In this document: in pieces, positions 11,549-64,000 of the stretch | How the letters are laid out: each line of letters opens with the position of its first letter | How positions within the stretch are numbered: the first letter of the stretch is position 1 | Sequence record: MK327936.1 | Strand: one strand, 5' to 3' | DNA: 64,000 bases | Source: Escherichia phage vB_EcoM_G2540 | Program-made: the position numbers and the translations under genes | The notes under the pieces: generated by a model | What the model was told of the DNA's origin: nothing | Seen by the model: the letters and a program-made list of their open reading frames with translations, nothing else | The model's database searches: none

Positions 11549-12151
11549 TTATAGATTAAATCCTTCAAAATCAAGAGTATAGATAGTGTATGTTGAATAC
11601 TTTTTGTACTCATATCTATCTGCAATTCTAAATACACTTCCAGCTGGTATCATTACTTCTTGTTCATCTGAAACTAATTCCATATTACGATAACGATGGC
11701 TATCCGGAAACTTAAAGTTTGGATTGTATTCTTTACAACGTAGAGCTTTTATAGCATACTCCTGGAAATTGAATACCATAGGAGCTTTGAATTCAAAAAT
11801 AACTTGTGTGTTATACTCTAAACCGGAAGCAAAATGTAGAGCTATATTTTTATCATATGAAGCTGATACGACTTTATCAAATGTAATAATATCAATTCCT
11901 TGATTTAATACTTGCTTAGTCTCAGCTGGAACACCTCTCCAAAGAGGTTTATCGTTTGGTTCCAAACGAGATTTGATTATTTCATTTAACCAAGTATGGT
12001 CATCTGGTTTATTAGTAATACAATGAATTAAAAGTTCAATTTCAGATAAATTAAACCCTTCAGAAAGTAATTCTTCACGAATAGAAGCACGCACCGATGC
12101 ATCCATTGATTTTATTTTAAAATCTTTTAGTTGCATTACTGAGTATTTCAT
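11549..12151 (-). CDS. modA: ADP-ribosyltransferase ModA, 200 aa
   Basis: 200 aa as in T4 ModA; adjacent paralogue of 207 aa (ModB); start overlaps modB stop. Confidence 0.7.
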   Translation of the reverse strand: MKYSVMQLKDFKIKSMDASVRASIREELLSEGFNLSEIELLIHCITNKPDDHTWLNEIIKSRLEPNDKPLWRGVPAETKQVLNQGIDIITFDKVVSASYDKNIALHFASGLEYNTQVIFEFKAPMVFNFQEYAIKALRCKEYNPNFKFPDSHRYRNMELVSDEQEVMIPAGSVFRIADRYEYKKYSTYTIYTLDFEGFNL

Positions 12152-12771
12152 TCAACTACCTCAATATCATAAACTTTAAATGTTCCAAATGAATCGTGTA
12201 ATTTTTCTTTTGAAATAGAAGTTATTCTATACTTTCCAATTGGAATCATCCATTCTTGTTCACGCACAATCATCATTAAGTTATCAGTACGCTCTGAATC
12301 TAGCCCATCAGTATCTTCATACGTGTACTTAAACTCAGTATTAGGAGAAGAAAGTATAATATCGCTGATATGGTCAGAATAATTAAAAGCTTTATCAGTT
12401 TTTAAGCGAAATATTATTTCAGTGAAATACTCAACATAAGAAAAACCACATGCTGTGTGCAAACTAGTAGTAAATGAATCTACCCTATTCGTTGAAAACA
12501 CTTCTCCAACTTGTAAATCTTTAATGAGTTCTTTTGTCGATTTTGATATACCACGATATAACTGATAAGGTGATTTAGTTAAATGCTTTTTAACGATTTT
12601 ATTCAACTGCCGATGAAGAGCTTCATTCTTTTTAGCTTCCATACATTGCCAAAGAATTGACTGCTCAAAGTCAGTAAATTTTTCACAGACTTTTTTATAC
12701 ATATCATATTGAAAATCAACGCTTTCAGCTTTTATAGATAACTGTTCAACATCTGCAAGATTAATAATCAT
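12148..12771 (-). CDS. modB: ADP-ribosyltransferase ModB, 207 aa
   Basis: 207 aa as in T4 ModB; paralogous to the downstream 200-aa ORF. Confidence 0.7.
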   Translation of the reverse strand: MIINLADVEQLSIKAESVDFQYDMYKKVCEKFTDFEQSILWQCMEAKKNEALHRQLNKIVKKHLTKSPYQLYRGISKSTKELIKDLQVGEVFSTNRVDSFTTSLHTACGFSYVEYFTEIIFRLKTDKAFNYSDHISDIILSSPNTEFKYTYEDTDGLDSERTDNLMMIVREQEWMIPIGKYRITSISKEKLHDSFGTFKVYDIEVVE

Positions 12772-59278: not shown

Positions 59279-59568
59279 TCAGTCTCCAATTTAATGTTCA
59301 TAATTCTAGCGTATGATTGTGCCATCTCCGCGCCTCGCTCTATACATTCAAAATCGGAAGAGCACGGGTCATTTTTATAAGTCGTTCGCATAAAACTATA
59401 GAACTGTTCAGATGATTCTACGCTTTTGTTTTCAAAAAGCATATAAACGTGTCTAATACCAGATTCCATAAATTTATCAAAATGAGAATCGACATTCGCT
59501 TCAATTGGTGGAGATAAAGCAAATGCTAATCCTAGCATGGCAAATAGTGCCGTTGCTTTTAAGGCCAT
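59275..59568 (-). CDS. rI: lysis-inhibition regulator RI, 97 aa
   Basis: 97 aa; MALKATALFAMLGL...[69 protein letters not shown] matches recalled T4 RI. Confidence 0.8.
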   Translation of the reverse strand: MALKATALFAMLGLAFALSPPIEANVDSHFDKFMESGIRHVYMLFENKSVESSEQFYSFMRTTYKNDPCSSDFECIERGAEMAQSYARIMNIKLETE

Positions 59569-59580
59569 AAAGGCCTCCTA

Positions 59581-59793
59581 TCATTTTTGTCCTGTATTTA
59601 CTTTATGCCGATGCACGGCCTTAACTTTATCAAGGTATTTTTCAAAATTTCGCAATCTAGTATAGTCTGCCGGAGATTGGTTGAGTGATACTTCTCGACG
59701 CAAAGCTGAAATGATATTTCCAACTTCCCTACGAATTTCATCTAATTGAAGAACAGTAAGATTGCGAAGTTGCTTTTCAGTTAATTGTAGCAT
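59581..59793 (-). CDS. small hypothetical protein, 70 aa (rI.1 position)
   Basis: ORF between the late promoter and rI. Confidence 0.4.
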
Positions 59794-59818
59794 ATATACC
59801 CCTTTAGTTAGATAAACC

Positions 59819-59826
59819 TATTTATA
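59819..59826 (-). promoter_or_regulatory. late promoter (TATAAATA)
   Basis: plus tatttata 59819-59826 is the reverse complement of TATAAATA; lies in the tk-rI.1 intergenic region. Confidence 0.5.
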
Positions 59827-59835
59827 ACTTTTGCA

Positions 59836-60417
59836 CTAACCGAGCTTTTTAGTTAATTCATTCCAATGTTTTCTACACAAAGAAACATAAATTTCATCAC
59901 CAATACAGATTTGATTACCTTCTTTAACTGGTGTTCCATCTTCCATTAATCGAGCTGTTATAATAGCTTTTTTACCACAATGACAAACTGCCTTTAGTTC
60001 AATAAGTTTATCTGCAATCGCCAAAAGTTCTTTAGAACCTTCAAATAATTTTCCAGCGAAATCAGTCCTTAGCCCATAAGCCATAACAGGAACATTATAT
60101 GTATCAACAATTCGACTTAATTGATGCACCTGTTCAGTTTTTAAAAACTGAGCTTCATCTACAAATACACAATGAATATCTTTTTGTGCTTCAGCCCATT
60201 TATAGAACTCAAAAATATCCATATCATCCGTAATAATATTCGCTTCCTGCTTAATTCCAATGCGAGAAACGACTTCACAGACAGAATCGCGAGTATCAAT
60301 AGCAGGCTTAAGAACTAATACACCCATTCCGCGTTCTTTATAATTATGTGCAGCAGTCAAAAGAGAAGCAGATTTTCCAGCATTCATTGCTGCGTAAGTA
60401 AAAATTAAACTCGCCAT
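59836..60417 (-). CDS. tk: thymidine kinase, 193 aa
   Basis: 193 aa as in T4; P-loop (AAMNAGKS) and C-terminal Zn-binding Cys pairs. Confidence 0.8.
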   Translation of the reverse strand: MASLIFTYAAMNAGKSASLLTAAHNYKERGMGVLVLKPAIDTRDSVCEVVSRIGIKQEANIITDDMDIFEFYKWAEAQKDIHCVFVDEAQFLKTEQVHQLSRIVDTYNVPVMAYGLRTDFAGKLFEGSKELLAIADKLIELKAVCHCGKKAIITARLMEDGTPVKEGNQICIGDEIYVSLCRKHWNELTKKLG

Positions 60418-60426
60418 ATCACCTTC

Positions 60427-60612
60427 TTAAAGCATATTCACATAAGCTATTAATTCGTTTTCTTTCTTATCAAACCGATCAGCAAATTCTTCTTGCTGTT
60501 CGGGAGATAGCGGGCCGTATTCATCATAAAAGGTGTTTGCTTCTGTATGCTCATCTAGAAGTTCATGGATAAGCTCAAACAATTTATCTTTTTGTTCTTT
60601 ACTCAGACTCAT
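60427..60612 (-). CDS. small acidic protein, 61 aa
   Basis: ORF immediately downstream... positioned next to tk. Confidence 0.4.
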   Translation of the reverse strand: MSLSKEQKDKLFELIHELLDEHTEANTFYDEYGPLSPEQQEEFADRFDKKENELIAYVNML

Positions 60613-60778
60613 ATATTAATTTCCAGGAGTTTTAAAATAATTCGCTTTTGCTTAAATATTTCCATAGTTAAATGACCAGTATCTTTTTGACCGATTCCAA
60701 TGGCAAAACCTTTATTGACAGCGAGTTCAATTAAATTATCAAGCTCACGTAACACTTCATACTGTAACTCAAAACTAT

Positions 60779-60991
60779 TCATTTCGGTTTACCTTCTTTA
60801 ACGAAATCTGGATAAGGATAAAATCCCGAATAAAATCCTTCACCTTTATGATTGATGCATCCTTTATTAGAACAATAGCACCAATAATCGAAATCACAAG
60901 CCATTTCATCGTTGCATAAAGCAAAAACAACTGGCCATTTACACTTTTCACAATGGGCATTTTTAAGAATACTAGTTTGGCTCATAACCAT
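60779..60991 (-). CDS. small Cys-rich protein, 70 aa
   Basis: ten Cys (CEKCKW...CNDEMACDFDYWCYCSNKGC); preferred over the overlapping alternative frame. Confidence 0.35.
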   Translation of the reverse strand: MVMSQTSILKNAHCEKCKWPVVFALCNDEMACDFDYWCYCSNKGCINHKGEGFYSGFYPYPDFVKEGKPK

Positions 60992-61209
60992 GTAACCTTT
61001 AAGCAGTATTCTTCTACATGCTGTTTACGACCTTTCTTATCAATAAAGGTATATTCAACGAATGTTCCAATGTAGTCTTTATCTACATCATGCGGACTAT
61101 TAATTGGACATTTAGTACGGCAAATGCGTTCCCATTGACGAATAATTACTGCCTTATTCTTTGGGTCATATGGATGTGGATAATGTATATTCATAATAAC
61201 GGTTCCCAA
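60982..61209 (-). CDS. small hypothetical protein, 75 aa
   Basis: ORF. Confidence 0.35.
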   Translation of the reverse strand: MGTVIMNIHYPHPYDPKNKAVIIRQWERICRTKCPINSPHDVDKDYIGTFVEYTFIDKKGRKQHVEEYCLKVTWL

Positions 61210-61658
61210 TCAACAATCACAATTTCTAATTTAGAGGAATATGTATCTAAAATCCCCTCAATAATATCCCAGTTCCCTTTACCTATGCCTGCACCAATCC
61301 TAGGCATATAGATTGTAGGTTTAATCAGTTTATTTTCACCAAACTCATTTAATTCTAACATACAATTCATTAAAGCGGAATACTCAAAATTTGGCCCTGG
61401 TTGAAATTGAGTATAAAGGTTGAAGCAATACGCTTTATGAGTCCTAAAATATTTTTCATAGACTGAGTAAGAACCGAGTTTAGTTACATCACCCCATTCA
61501 GTCTGTAATTTATCAGCTTCCAAAATTTTAGGGAAAGCTTTGGTTAATTGACCCGCTACGCCTGAACCCATAGTATGAAAACAATTGCATCCATGCGCAA
61601 TATTTTTACCTTCAGCGAAAAGGGCGACAATATCGCCCTTGATATATTTTACAATCAT
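61191..61658 (-). CDS. macro-domain protein (candidate ADP-ribose binding/hydrolase), 155 aa
   Basis: macro-domain-like motifs: IAHGCNCFHTMGSGVAGQL (cf. NAAN...GGGV loop) and PRIGAGIGKGNW (cf. PAISTGIYG). Confidence 0.5.
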   Translation of the reverse strand: MIVKYIKGDIVALFAEGKNIAHGCNCFHTMGSGVAGQLTKAFPKILEADKLQTEWGDVTKLGSYSVYEKYFRTHKAYCFNLYTQFQPGPNFEYSALMNCMLELNEFGENKLIKPTIYMPRIGAGIGKGNWDIIEGILDTYSSKLEIVIVDWEPLL

Positions 61659-61996
61659 CTAGTACTCAATCCTCGATTATAAGAATCTACCAAACGGTCA
61701 ACCATTGAATGACAAGCGGCTTTATCTTTCTCCTCCGCAACTGAACATTCTAAGGTATTCCACTTTTTAGCATATCGTTTTAACAATGTATCATTTTTAT
61801 ATCTGCTTGATTTATCTCTTTCTCCGTCTTTATATGCATATATTAATTTCTGCGCAAATTCAGCTTGGCATGCTTTATTTTTCCCGCAATAATCCGCGGC
61901 AGTACGGTTTACATACTCTCTAATTTCAGTATATGATGTATCTGCTAACGCAGAAAATGAAATTAATCCTATACATAAAACCAAAATTTTAGTCAT
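61655..61996 (-). CDS. secreted protein, 113 aa
   Basis: signal peptide MTKILVLCIGLISFSALA; several Cys. Confidence 0.45.
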   Translation of the reverse strand: MTKILVLCIGLISFSALADTSYTEIREYVNRTAADYCGKNKACQAEFAQKLIYAYKDGERDKSSRYKNDTLLKRYAKKWNTLECSVAEEKDKAACHSMVDRLVDSYNRGLSTR

Positions 61997-62534
61997 TTAC
62001 TATTTCCAAAAGTTTATTATTTTTAAGGTAATTAGCCTTTTCTAGGACTTCAGAAGCATATTTAGAACCTGCTTTAACATTCCATCCCGAATTATAAGAG
62101 GATATTGCTTTTCTTATATCGCCCTTATGTATATTTAACCAATAAGAAAGTTCAATGTACGCCCAGGAAGCTGAATTGGACCGTTTATTCAACATTCTTT
62201 TTATTTCTGCATCGGTCATATTATAACCAAGTTCCTTAACTCTTGCTCGCATAGTAGGCAAATAATTTTGGAACATTCCGTAGGCGTGATGCTTTGGTTT
62301 AGATTTTAAATTAACTCCGCCAGAGCTTTCTTGCCATAAAATAGCAGCCATTATATGACCTAATCCGCTCTTATGGATATTTTTGTGTGTTTTATATTTT
62401 CCATCCTTAGAAAATTGTTCCCCGAATTGATACGCGTAACGCATGTTATCGAGTTGGACATTACTGAAAGTATGCTCGGAGCTATGTGCCATCATTGAAA
62501 TGGCCAATAGACCAGCGAGTAGTGCTTTTCTCAT
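61989..62534 (-). CDS. periplasmic lytic transglycosylase (SLT domain), 181 aa
   Basis: signal peptide MRKALLAGLLAISMMAHS; catalytic-Glu motif AAILWQESSGG and downstream YN.G-type motif. Confidence 0.55.
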   Translation of the reverse strand: MRKALLAGLLAISMMAHSSEHTFSNVQLDNMRYAYQFGEQFSKDGKYKTHKNIHKSGLGHIMAAILWQESSGGVNLKSKPKHHAYGMFQNYLPTMRARVKELGYNMTDAEIKRMLNKRSNSASWAYIELSYWLNIHKGDIRKAISSYNSGWNVKAGSKYASEVLEKANYLKNNKLLEIVND

Positions 62535-62541
62535 GCTTACC

Positions 62542-63003
62542 TCATTGAGTTTTAATTACTGCTTTAGAAGCCTTTCCTGGTAAACGACGACTGTTGATAA
62601 TTGCCATCCTGCATTGAAGTGACGGGTTTTTGAACTTCTCATTAGGCTTACAAACCGTAAATCCAAGCCAAAGATTTCCATCTGTGATTTCTAAACGTCC
62701 AGGACGATATTCAACCCCATCAATAAAATCCTCGTCAATGTCAGGACGCGGAGGCATACTCAGGAATTCATTAACTTCTAAAACATGGTCTTTTATTTTA
62801 TGGAATAATTCAAAAACATATGTCTCATCAATCTCCCGTTGAATTGCACGATCAAGAAGATGCTGAGAATATTTTAGATGAAACGATGAGACTCCTGCTG
62901 CTTTTGATGCCTCACGAATCTCATTGTTAATTTGACGAAACTCCGACTCAAAGTGACGACGAAGCTTATTTCGACGGATAAAAACTTCTGTATTGATAGT
63001 CAT
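62542..63003 (-). CDS. regB: endoribonuclease RegB, 153 aa
   Basis: 153 aa as in T4; position between the vs block and denV. Confidence 0.75.
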   Translation of the reverse strand: MTINTEVFIRRNKLRRHFESEFRQINNEIREASKAAGVSSFHLKYSQHLLDRAIQREIDETYVFELFHKIKDHVLEVNEFLSMPPRPDIDEDFIDGVEYRPGRLEITDGNLWLGFTVCKPNEKFKNPSLQCRMAIINSRRLPGKASKAVIKTQ

Positions 63004-63030
63004 GTTATTCTCCTCTTAACTGATAGAAAA

Positions 63031-63060
63031 ATTATACCACAGTCAAGAGGAAAAGTAAAC
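63031..63060 (-). promoter_or_regulatory. T4-type early promoter
   Basis: plus gtaaac 63055-63060, 18-bp spacer, plus attata 63031-63036; upstream of regB. Confidence 0.5.
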
Positions 63061-63062
63061 AG

Positions 63063-63650
63063 TTATTCTTTAAATCTAATCAATTTATTCATAGACTTTG
63101 AAACTTCTGCACGAACCTCATGTAAGTTTTTAAGCTGTTCAAGACGCTGCTCATAGTAAGCAATTTCATCTTCTTCGAGACAGTCCTGTGAATCTTCTTT
63201 AAGATAACGTGCATAGTCCTGAAAAGCTTTACGGACTACTTCCTGGAAGTCATCAAGACTTTGAATTTTCTTAGGAGCGGCAGATACACGACGAGGTGCA
63301 GTATAATACTCATAACCAAACCCTGCACTTAATTGAGCCATTAGTATTTTTCCTCTGGTTGGAATATCGCTGATGTCAGGAACTTCAGTATCTTTTATAC
63401 TAAACCCACGTTTTAAGCATTCCGTTATAATGTCTGATTGACGCTTTCGCAAAAATTCTAACTTATCGTAAAAGAACGTAACATGACCAGAGCCTAAAAT
63501 AAACTCGGAAGATATTTTAAAATCTTTAACCCGCTTACCATTTGCCACATGTTTACGAACTATACCAAAAACACGCGGCAATTCACGATACTCAGCCATA
63601 AGATGTTGGTCGGTCAGTTCAGAAACAAGTGTTAAATTGATACGAGTCAT
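63063..63650 (-). CDS. denV: endonuclease V (pyrimidine-dimer DNA glycosylase) homologue with divergent, extended C-terminus, ~195 aa
   Basis: first ~100 aa match recalled T4 DenV ([12 protein letters not shown]...[10 protein letters not shown]); T4 is 138 aa; start placed at MTRINL after a GGAGGA Shine-Dalgarno. Confidence 0.7.
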
Positions 63651-63677
63651 AATTTCCTCCAAGTAGTTGATGAATGT

Positions 63678-63707
63678 ATAGTATCAAAGTCCTTGGAGGA
63701 AGTAAAC
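63678..63707 (-). promoter_or_regulatory. T4-type early promoter
   Basis: plus gtaaac 63702-63707, 18-bp spacer, plus atagta 63678-63683; upstream of denV. Confidence 0.45.
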
Positions 63708-63708
63708 A

Positions 63709-63990
63709 CTATTTTTCTGAAGCGCCTGAAATATATTTTTCAAGACGTTGTTTCATTAGCGAGCCGTTCTTAGCGATTTCTTCTGGTTTATCGCACATAC
63801 GCAACAAGGCTTCAAGCTTAACGATATCGCTGGTACGTTCAAATTTGCGAGTATCTATCTTACTAGCAAGTTCAGAAATACGTGCTAATAGACTTTCAGC
63901 TTCAACCAAAGCTGCACCTAGCTTAGTTGCAAATGTGTCAGTAGCTTCGTTAAGAATAGATTCTGATAAAAATTCACTATATGTTTTCAT
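63709..63990 (-). CDS. internal protein (IPII-like) with capsid-targeting N-terminus, 93 aa
   Basis: N-terminus MKTYSEFLSE resembles the T4 internal-protein capsid-targeting sequence (MKTYQEFIAE); position next to denV. Confidence 0.55.
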   Translation of the reverse strand: MKTYSEFLSESILNEATDTFATKLGAALVEAESLLARISELASKIDTRKFERTSDIVKLEALLRMCDKPEEIAKNGSLMKQRLEKYISGASEK

Positions 63991-64000
63991 ATATACGCTT

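Follow-up and report, generated by a model that had tools for sequence, protein, structure and literature searches.

The interval between tk and regB of Escherichia phage vB_EcoM_G2540 (MK327936.1, of which a stretch of 64,000 nucleotides, the window, was analyzed) contains three overlapping minus-strand ORFs of a T4-type phage, at 61191-62534 in the ORF list. All three are long-annotated, named T4 genes, tk.4, vs and vs.1, and these names were absent from a preliminary description of the region made from the sequence alone. The account that we regard as probable by a good margin is that of the T4 genes vs.1, vs and tk.4 with Tk.4 as an anti-DarT2 macrodomain and Vs.1 as an exported GH23 protein. 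The anti-DarTG2 role of tk.4 is already published, and the main use of our analysis lies in correcting labels: the tk.4 product is labelled "phosphatase" by RefSeq and PHROG, and many GenBank records still give adfM as "phosphatase" or "hypothetical protein".

The placement of the ORFs given in the preliminary description, with tk and regB as flanks and the 155-aa ORF overlapping the 113-aa ORF, which in turn overlaps the SLT ORF, was confirmed, and reading of the sequence gave overlaps of 4 nt (ATGA) for vs/tk.4 and 8 nt for vs.1/vs. These overlapping stop and start codons suggest translational coupling. The region shows 99.3% nucleotide identity to Tequatrovirus genomes; the order regB-vs.1-vs-tk.4 is common to S16, Kosakonia 305, G2494, phiAS4, RB9 and JS09, and the neighbours of tk.4 here are vs and tk.3, as in T4. 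The T4 genes vs.4-vs.8 are missing from the G2540 background, as is the 3' end of denV. Promoter and terminator scans of the region gave numbers of matches not above shuffled expectation; the top sigma-70-like match lies directly upstream of regB, and the T4 record X04567 likewise marks a potential -10 ahead of the regB ORF. We consider that regB, vs.1, vs and tk.4 probably form one transcription unit, with regB first, read early from a promoter upstream of regB. An Rfam scan of 59500-64000 found no RNA family, and small plus-strand ORFs within the interval received no support.

Table 1. Features of the tk-regB interval of G2540 (positions in the window)
Feature	Position	Strand	Basis
tk, flank of interval	59836-60417		
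tk.4 / adfM, 155-aa stand-alone macrodomain, ALC1-like class (Gln type), anti-DarTG2 factor	61191..61658	-	identity to T4 Tk.4, Pfam, AF2, Foldseek, published T4 knockout
Gln84 codon of Tk.4	61407..61409	-	site of catalytic Lys DarG K80 / TARG1 K84; = SCO6735 Gln85
Asn25 codon of Tk.4	61584..61586	-	= DarG N22, PhiKZ AdfM N23, SCO6735 N27; invariant in family alignment A1; codon checked
vs, 113-aa "valyl-tRNA synthetase modifier"	61655..61996	-	112/113 identical to T4 Vs; PHROG 1256, 5.2e-40
Predicted Sec signal peptide of Vs, MTKILVLCIGLISFSALA then DT	61943..61996	-	heuristic: hydrophobic character kept, sequence varies
vs.1, 181-aa secreted (predicted) GH23/SLT-type lytic transglycosylase-like protein	61989..62534	-	181/181 identical to T4 Vs.1
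Glu69 codon of Vs.1, putative catalytic acid, E-S motif (QESSGG)	62328..62330	-	invariant in 37 diverged homologues; codon checked
regB endoribonuclease, flank, context only	62542..63003	-	Pfam REGB_T4 5.9e-69; 152/153 identical to T4 RegB
Top sigma-70-like promoter match, directly upstream of regB	63031..63059	-	TTTACT-17-TATAAT, TG extended; consensus match only

Tk.4 is a genuine macrodomain. It is identical to T4 Tk.4 (NP_049723) at all 155 of 155 residues and matches Pfam Macro (PF01661) over residues 22-132 at 27.7 bits, above the gathering score of 22 (2.9e-6). The macro-domain-like motifs noted earlier in the 155-aa ORF were both found in the protein, GCNCFHTMGSGVAGQL at residues 23-38 and PRIGAGIGKGNW at residues 119-130, and the glycine-rich loops GSGVAG and PRIGAGIG are conserved in the family alignment (A1, comprising 63 Tk.4 homologues). 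The proposal of a macro fold was borne out by fold comparison: the AF2 model has a pLDDT of 94.6, and its top Foldseek matches in the PDB are all ALC1-like macrodomains, with TARG1 the best (1.2e-9) and Poa1p, Bt_1257 and DarG also found. The model gave 115 PDB matches at E ≤ 0.001, those listed being macrodomains or designs on macrodomain-like folds, and its TM scores to TARG1 and Poa1p are 0.72-0.81. A sequence search of the PDB returned Bt_1257 first (1.3e-9), followed by Poa1p, SCO6735, DarG and TARG1, and the family profile placed Bt_1257 (2e-18) ahead of TARG1 (2e-15), SCO6735 (4e-14) and Mycobacterium tuberculosis DarG (1e-13). By sequence, the DNA hydrolases and the ADP-ribose-1''-phosphate phosphatase Poa1p lie at about the same distance from Tk.4.

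The preliminary description had also suggested that a phage-borne macrodomain could counter host ADP-ribosylating defences, and for the identical T4 protein, conditionally essential against DarTG2, exactly this has been published. A HIDEN-SEQ screen returned tk.4 as the sole significant T4 match against DarTG2, and the gene was renamed adfM, since T4 with a clean knockout became sensitive to DarTG2; on E. coli K-12 the gene can be lost, and it matters only when DarTG2 is present, the evidence being genetic and from one preprint (bioRxiv 10.1101/2025.11.20.689424). Comparison of G2540 with RB9 shows that tk.4 alone falls to 47-65% nucleotide identity while its flanks stay at 97-100%, so tk.4 behaves as a cassette exchanged between T-even phages that are nearly identical elsewhere; the alleles of G2540, JS09 and RB9 stand at 100%, 85% and 58% identity. 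Such exchange is expected of a counter-defence gene, as the signature of an arms race, and the exchangeable alleles make the specificity of each allele for a given DarT testable.

The active site of Tk.4 was compared with those of macrodomains of known activity. The catalytic lysine of DarG (K80 in the Thermus aquaticus protein, after the FPT motif) is not present, and its column holds Gln84, which like Asn25 is invariant in the 63 homologues. The segment NLYTQ of Tk.4 aligns with NFPTK of DarG (hhalign), LITK of TARG1 and NMIGQ of Bt_1257, and the equivalence of Asn25 to the asparagine of DarG-like proteins also comes from hhalign. Neither residue of the Lys84/Asp125 dyad of TARG1 is found in the alignment, Lys84 being replaced by Gln84 and Asp125 by Gly126 of IGAGIGKGNW. 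Glutamine at the DarG-K80/TARG1-K84 site together with a positioning asparagine is the arrangement of SCO6735 and Bt_1257, and Tk.4 has both. In SCO6735 the Q85A mutant is inactive and N27S nearly dead, and the wild-type protein works faster than DarG in cleaving DarT-made T-ADPr on DNA and also rescues DarT toxicity (PMC9411070); mutation of the equivalent asparagine in PhiKZ AdfM lowers its activity (PMC13309987). From these alignments we infer that the chemistry of Tk.4 follows SCO6735/Bt_1257 and not DarG/TARG1. The "mobile loop" of the SCO6735/Bt_1257 subclass, five residues longer than in DarG/TARG1 (PMC9411070), is not in Tk.4, which has a 6-column gap relative to Bt_1257 right after the Q-x-x-P-G segment, so the mechanism may differ from both known types. 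The missing lysine raised the idea of an inactive "reader" macrodomain, which we rejected since SCO6735 has the same glutamine yet hydrolyses T-ADPr on DNA with high activity.

Most likely, Tk.4 acts as a free-standing antitoxin-like macrodomain that would strip the ADP-ribose placed by the host toxin DarT2 off thymidine in single-stranded phage DNA, and loss of this ADP-ribose would restore replication. Gln84, held by Asn25, would position the distal ribose with no catalytic lysine involved, and a backbone-activated water would then attack. Established are the macro fold, the match with T4 Tk.4 at every residue, the equivalent residues in related macrodomains and the published genetic phenotype; that Tk.4 acts on T-ADPr DNA, and by a Gln-type mechanism, is what we infer.

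Two other substrates for Tk.4 deserve weighing, the first being the phage's own protein ADP-ribosylation. The Alt, ModA and ModB enzymes of T4 are arginine-specific. Their marks on RNA polymerase and other host proteins, or RNAylation, might be reversed or tuned by Tk.4, and the preliminary description had pointed to ModA/ModB in the same genome at 11549-12771; the ORFs at 11549-12151 and 12148-12771 do match the PHROG "RNA polymerase ADP-ribosylase" (E of 8e-34 and 6.5e-42), and tk.4 is early like them. Proteins can moreover be de-MARylated by ALC1-like macrodomains, but hydrolysis of Arg-ADPr is assigned to ARH1-type enzymes (PMC7050489), and ALC1-like macrodomains act on Asp/Glu esters, O-acetyl-ADPr, nucleic-acid termini and thymidine-ADPr (PMC7050489; PMC9411070). 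About 49 kb within the window separates the mod genes from tk.4, so there is no genetic linkage, and the dispensability of tk.4 on K-12 and its importance only with DarTG2 (bioRxiv 10.1101/2025.11.20.689424) offer no phenotype for an eraser of ModA/ModB marks. The suggestion that the macrodomain regulates those marks found no backing; we set it aside on the chemistry of the arginine linkage together with the lack of a phenotype, and regard it as very improbable. The other reading makes Tk.4 mainly a small-molecule enzyme, a Poa1p-like ADP-ribose-1''-phosphate phosphatase or an O-acetyl-ADP-ribose deacetylase clearing by-products of RNA repair or of sirtuin/NADase-type defences. Poa1p does rank with the best matches both by sequence and by fold, and the historical "A1pp phosphatase" annotation, the RefSeq and PHROG labels and the name O-acetyl-ADP-ribose deacetylase borne by some homologues all lean this way. 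These labels, however, are transferred annotation and not tests, the only known tk.4 phenotype is DarTG2-specific (bioRxiv 10.1101/2025.11.20.689424), and Bt_1257, the nearest structure by sequence, groups with the DNA hydrolase SCO6735 (PMC9411070), which leaves a mainly small-molecule role quite unlikely. Small-molecule and DNA activities of Tk.4 could coexist.

The partners of tk.4 in the interval both carry predicted signal peptides whose character is kept across diverged homologues while their sequence varies. Vs.1 had been described as an SLT-domain transglycosylase with a signal peptide and an ESSGG motif, and we find the Pfam SLT family (PF01464) matched with 25.1 bits, over the cut-off of 21.3, and ESSGG at residues 69-73. 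Its AF2 model (pLDDT 88.7) has a goose-lysozyme-like fold, with weak Foldseek E-values, the best being 8e-3. Family 1 lytic transglycosylases are marked by a catalytic glutamate in E-S, by G-x-x-Q and by (A/S)-Y-N-x-G. Among 37 homologues of Vs.1 down to 40% identity, E69, G86/Q89 and Y147/N148/G150 are invariant and S70 is kept in at least 90%. The predicted signal peptide, assigned heuristically, has a basic n-region, a hydrophobic core of 12-14 residues and the cleavage site AHS|S, and it is kept across 2013 phage records of Straboviridae, Ackermannviridae and Felixounavirus; the ~40 residues that follow it are family-specific. The location of vs.1 in a regB-headed pre-replicative unit and the Sec signal of its product imply that Vs.1 would be made after entry, which makes a contribution to entry, as had been proposed, unlikely; the entry muramidase of T4 is the tail protein gp5. 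Vs.1 is thus a predicted Sec-exported, single-domain GH23 lytic-transglycosylase-like enzyme, and in infected cells it probably acts on peptidoglycan from the periplasmic side, by nicking or remodelling it.

The "secreted 113-aa protein" of the preliminary description corresponds to Vs, known classically as the valyl-tRNA synthetase modifier, and its secretion agrees with what we predict. The start of Vs has a basic n-region, a hydrophobic core of 12-14 residues and the cleavage site ALA|D (again heuristic), with a 2-aa deletion within the signal peptide relative to T4 Vs, and the hydrophobicity is kept in homologues from Tequatrovirus, Gelderlandvirus, Kanagawavirus, Krischvirus and Mosigvirus. 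The predicted mature protein, which would begin with DTSYTE if the signal peptide is cleaved, has a computed mass of about 11.0 kDa and four conserved cysteines, C37, C43, C84 and C95. Searches with Vs gave no meaningful PDB or Pfam match in local copies of these databases, and a literature search on its export found no relevant paper. By tblastn Vs occurs in 795 phage records; a k-mer-indexed search gave only 6 clusters, an underestimate, and diverged, sometimes unannotated copies exist. The predicted signal peptide and the four cysteines, which point to export and disulfides, would fit poorly with a cytoplasmic ValRS target, and predicted export of Vs beside an exported transglycosylase exposes an inconsistency in a 50-year-old gene assignment.

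One way to accommodate these features is that Vs and Vs.1 pair up in the periplasm, with Vs a disulfide-bonded partner or inhibitor of Vs.1 and the ValRS-modifier label incomplete or mis-assigned. Besides the conserved signal peptide and cysteines, this reading draws on the 8-nt overlap of the two genes, on a Vs-like protein with signal peptide and four cysteines directly after vs.1 in Tequatro-, Mosig-, Gelderland-, Kanagawa- and Krischvirus, on the vs ORF being unnamed in the original T4 sequence record (ORF 60.9) and on the published insolubility of N-terminally His-tagged Vs in the cytoplasm. The predicted mass of mature Vs also matches the T4 ValRS-modifying factor of roughly 10 kDa. In the classical biochemistry of the 1970s, however, the T4 factor is described as binding ValRS; the published vs deletion has a plaque defect specifically in minimal medium, which fits an amino-acid or tRNA-charging role, and Vs.1 is present without Vs in Aeromonas, Ackermannviridae and Felixounavirus phages. 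A periplasmic pair is unlikely, and we would give a similarly small chance to the wider proposition that Vs is not primarily a cytoplasmic ValRS modifier but an exported disulfide-bonded periplasmic protein working with or restraining Vs.1 and that, separately, Tk.4 shows a third way of catalysis among the macrodomains that remove ADP-ribose from DNA, one in which a Gln-type site goes with no long mobile loop. Were Vs periplasmic, the minimal-medium defect of vs mutants would reflect damage to the cell envelope and not tRNA charging. For Vs.1 itself, the marginal SLT similarity (25.1 bits; historically E 0.012-0.74) could mean a catalytically inert protein with only a peptidoglycan-binding or structural role, but the invariance of the catalytic glutamate, GxxQ and YNxG over the 37 homologues is what one would expect if the enzyme is active, and we consider inertness improbable.

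Among known systems, Vs.1 differs from the GH23 family 1 enzymes Slt70, MltC/D/E/F and EtgA in consisting of one minimal domain, to which neither a lipobox nor a LysM or superhelical domain is joined, and in being phage-encoded and early, neither a virion nor a lysis-cassette protein. For Tk.4 the closest case is AdfM of T4 itself, the same protein with the same neighbours in the same genus, from which the genomic background alone differs. SCO6735 of Streptomyces coelicolor (PDB 5E3B), a proven thymidine-ADPr DNA hydrolase (PMC9411070), and Bt_1257 (PDB 2FG1), the best solved-structure relative of Tk.4, are likewise Gln-type ALC1-like macrodomains: all share the glutamine at the lysine site, the locking asparagine, the absence of the TARG1-dyad aspartate and a stand-alone form of ~155 aa. 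Tk.4 differs from them in lacking the 5-6-residue longer mobile loop with its extra lysines, in an identity of only about 26% and in being phage-encoded with a counter-defence use.

With the DarG macrodomain (T. aquaticus 5M3E, M. tuberculosis 5M3I) Tk.4 shares the fold class (Foldseek 1.5e-7, TM about 0.77), the asparagine (N22/N25) and the genetic neutralisation of the same toxin family. It departs from DarG in the change of K80 to Gln84, in its length of 155 aa against about 340 and in being without the C-terminal DarT-binding domain; no darT gene adjoins tk.4. DarG HMMs match Tk.4 in the macro part only (PADLOC DarG, 1.3e-9), and the NCBIfam equivalog NF048014 scores 30.3 bits against a cut-off of 250, over profile positions 2-146 of 338. 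We rejected a bona fide DarG-type enzyme on the invariant glutamine, the missing DarT-binding domain and this low score. PhiKZ gp104, also named AdfM, is like Tk.4 a stand-alone phage macrodomain that counters DarTG2, but it belongs to a DarG-like subfamily (E of 9e-25 to M. tuberculosis DarG), keeps the FPTK lysine K78 and has in vitro proof (PMC13309987), whereas the evidence for T4 Tk.4 is genetic; the two proteins share only a 23-residue local match (E of 0.005). The name AdfM thus covers two different macrodomain subfamilies, one with a glutamine and the other with a lysine in the active site, so results on one should not be carried uncritically to the other.

Nucleotide comparison of positions 60400-63100 revealed 99.3% identity to many Tequatrovirus genomes, for example vB_EcoM_G9062, and the window comes from a T4-type phage. 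The three overlapping ORFs that a preliminary description had placed at 61191-62534 were all recovered, with overlaps of 4 and 8 nt and with every motif that it had quoted, and they are the named T4 genes tk.4, vs and vs.1. The order regB-vs.1-(vs)-tk.4 is kept across Straboviridae; as general T4 synteny, it is not taken here to tie the macrodomain functionally to the periplasmic proteins. On the coding strand, the best promoter-like match lies directly upstream of regB, with such matches at no more than the shuffled level, and an Rfam scan of 59500-64000 gave no RNA family.

Features of the region from tk to the denV-vs.3 fusion (T4 reference NC_000866)
Feature	Position	Strand	Length	Identity to T4 protein	Source
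denV-vs.3 fusion	63063-63662	-	199 aa		
regB	62542-63003	-			ORF listing
vs.1	61989-62534	-	181 aa	181/181 (Vs.1)	NC_000866
vs	61655-61996	-	113 aa	112/113 (Vs), 2-residue deletion in N-terminal hydrophobic segment	NC_000866
tk.4	61191-61658	-	155 aa	155/155 (Tk.4)	NC_000866
four small ORFs	60427-60991	-			ORF listing
tk	59836-60417	-			ORF listing

The four small ORFs (61, 57, 70 and 75 aa) are unlike T4, which has three. Only the 75-aa ORF (DUF7202) matches T4 Tk.3 (70/70), the product of the 70-aa ORF belongs to the "phage zinc-binding domain" proteins (PF23895), and conservation at the tk.1 and tk.2 positions is poor. The 5' end of tk.4 contains, at 61620-61640 (codons for KGDIVAL), a perfect inverted repeat of 8 bp, AAGGGCGA-CAATA-TCGCCCTT, which was marked as terminator-like for the non-coding strand; by chance the region should hold one such site. 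In the 199-aa ORF, the first ~101 residues of DenV, a part 84/97 identical to T4 DenV, are fused in frame to Vs.3, with a junction near 63361-63364 that is spanned by none of 50,697 phage records. Relative to G9062 and T4, ~1.96 kb is absent (vs.4-vs.8 and the denV 3' end), and the phage would have neither the GrcA-like Vs.6 nor an intact endonuclease V. The junction could stem from a deletion, either natural or made in the laboratory, or from an artefact of assembly.

The 155-aa ORF had been described as a macrodomain, and several independent lines bear this out. Pfam Macro matched Tk.4 at 27.7 bits (gathering threshold of 22 bits), and a PDB sequence search returned Bt_1257 (1.3e-9), Poa1p, SCO6735, DarG and TARG1. 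In the structure comparison that had been proposed as a check, an AlphaFold2 model from a 63-sequence family alignment (mean pLDDT 94.6) gave ALC1-like macrodomains first in Foldseek, the best matches being TARG1 (1.2e-9), Poa1p, Bt_1257 and DarG. The NCBIfam and PADLOC DarG HMMs match just the macro part of Tk.4, with the NCBIfam equivalog at 30 bits, far under its cut-off of 250. Similarity of tk.4 to A1pp/macro proteins was already pointed out in 2006 (PMC1524935).

For Vs.1, Pfam SLT scored just over threshold, a PDB sequence search gave no match, and Foldseek matches of the AlphaFold2 model (pLDDT 88.7) were weak. A set of 37 homologues, the most distant at 40% identity, shows no variation at Glu69 (E-S motif), G86/Q89 or Y147/N148/G150, and each of them starts with a signal-peptide-like segment. 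Homologues occur in 2013 phage records, among them Ackermannviridae and Felixounavirus, in which rIIA-rIIB precede the gene. The best reading of Vs.1 is a putative GH23 lytic transglycosylase that is produced after infection and exported; the earlier SLT assignment stands, whereas the suggested role in entry is unlikely because this is a non-virion early protein. Its likeness to SLT was on record by 2006 (PMC1524935), beyond which we found no published function for Vs.1 in the literature. Secreted SLT proteins resembling Vs.1 are not confined to the T4 family: Salmonella phage SenALZ1 (Ackermannviridae) and Escherichia phage HY02 (Felixounavirus) encode them too, and the HY02 gene comes directly after rIIA-rIIB near an Rz-like spanin gene, which hints at an envelope or lysis link.

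The "113-aa secreted protein" of the preliminary description is the T4 valyl-tRNA synthetase modifier Vs (T4 reference, PHROG), an identity left out there, although the export signal itself held up: the N-terminus, MTKILVLCIGLISFSALA with predicted cleavage before DT, resembles a cleavable Sec signal. The predicted mature protein (11.0 kDa) has four Cys and, with signal and cysteines both conserved, is predicted to be periplasmic and disulfide-bonded. In the phage JS09 locus (L012), a vs gene without annotation (MTKVLALIVGLVSFNALANTTYTDV...) lies at 1464-1801 in the gap between annotated vs.1 and tk.4, which means that counts of vs from databases are too low. The predicted export would be hard to reconcile with a cytoplasmic ValRS target, and this conflict with the modifier label is worth passing on. 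Vs might instead be a periplasmic partner of Vs.1, as its signal peptide and cysteines, the presence of a Vs-like protein with both features directly 3' of vs.1 in five genera and the lack of a name for the ORF in the original T4 sequence record would allow. We consider this unlikely, given that classical biochemistry, as cited in the literature, describes a ValRS-binding factor in T4, and that a vs knockout is specifically defective in minimal medium, which suits a tRNA-charging function.

The proposal that Tk.4 reverses or tunes the protein marks of ModA/ModB is very unlikely. The same genome does carry two such ORFs at 11549-12771, which fall in the RNA polymerase ADP-ribosylase PHROG and for which Pfam has no model, but these enzymes modify arginine, and removal of Arg-ADPr belongs to ARH1-type hydrolases. 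For ALC1-like macrodomains, the documented substrates are esters of acidic residues, OAADPr, the ends of nucleic acids and thymidine (PMC9411070, PMC7050489), and tk.4 is dispensable on plain K-12 (10.1101/2025.11.20.689424).

The companion suggestion, that Tk.4 counters host ADP-ribosylating defences, was correct and is already in print for the identical T4 protein: when T4 transposon mutants were screened on a host expressing DarTG2, no gene but tk.4 came out as significant, a clean knockout sensitized T4 to DarTG2, and the authors, who named the gene adfM, propose on a genetic basis that Tk.4/AdfM takes DarT2-made ADP-ribose off DNA (2025 preprint, 10.1101/2025.11.20.689424). Both the finding and its main interpretation hold, yet the T4 genes concerned had been described before, and their function has recently been published; the anti-DarTG2 role was known, and the analysis of the Gln-for-Lys site is added here.

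Also worth passing on is that tk.4 varies in the manner of a cassette. Phage records with a Vs.1 of at least 99% identity number 477; at a level of at least 95% there are 497 for Vs and just 220 for Tk.4. T-even phages hold at least three allele classes, at ~100%, ~85% and ~58% protein identity. Compared with phage RB9, nucleotide identity is 97-100% through the greater part of regB, vs.1, vs and tk.3-tk, with lower values there only at the extremities of the aligned stretch and at the vs signal-peptide indel, whereas over tk.4 identity is 47-65% (window 61179-61566), a drop limited to that ORF. The RB9 allele retains Asn25 and Gln84. Such a pattern would be in keeping with exchange of, or diversifying selection on, a gene for counter-defence.

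Profile-profile alignment sets N-L-Y-T-Q of Tk.4 on N-F-P-T-K of DarG, with Gln84 opposite DarG K80. The Tk.4 family profile against the PDB puts Gln84 at the same site (TARG1 K84), aligned with the Gln of Bt_1257, and pairs Gly126 with TARG1 Asp125; Asn25 and Gln84 are invariant over the 63 Tk.4 homologues. The absent lysine was initially taken as a warning sign, which was countered by the Gln-bearing, highly active SCO6735. This protein, 54% identical to Bt_1257 and with Gln85 at the DarG-lysine site, cleaves DarT-made thymidine-ADPr on DNA more quickly than DarG or TARG1 and rescues E. coli from DarT toxicity; Q85A is dead and N27S nearly so, and in the proposed mechanism a backbone carbonyl activates water and Gln positions the distal ribose (PMC9411070). 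Because SCO6735 has the same-site Gln and cleaves thymidine-ADPr, Tk.4 by analogy most likely works like SCO6735, but its fit to that subclass is imperfect too, because it is without the 5-6-residue longer "mobile loop" that defines the subclass (a gap in the profile-PDB alignment). PhiKZ gp104, independently named AdfM, strips ADP-ribose from a DarT2-modified oligonucleotide in vitro (PMC13309987) and is genuinely related to DarG (E 9e-25 against the M. tuberculosis protein), keeping the conserved FPTK motif and, within it, the catalytic lysine, whereas Tk.4 shares with it nothing beyond a 23-residue local match (E 0.005). The Gln-for-Lys active site, which sets Tk.4 apart from both PhiKZ AdfM and DarG, is a further point worth passing on.
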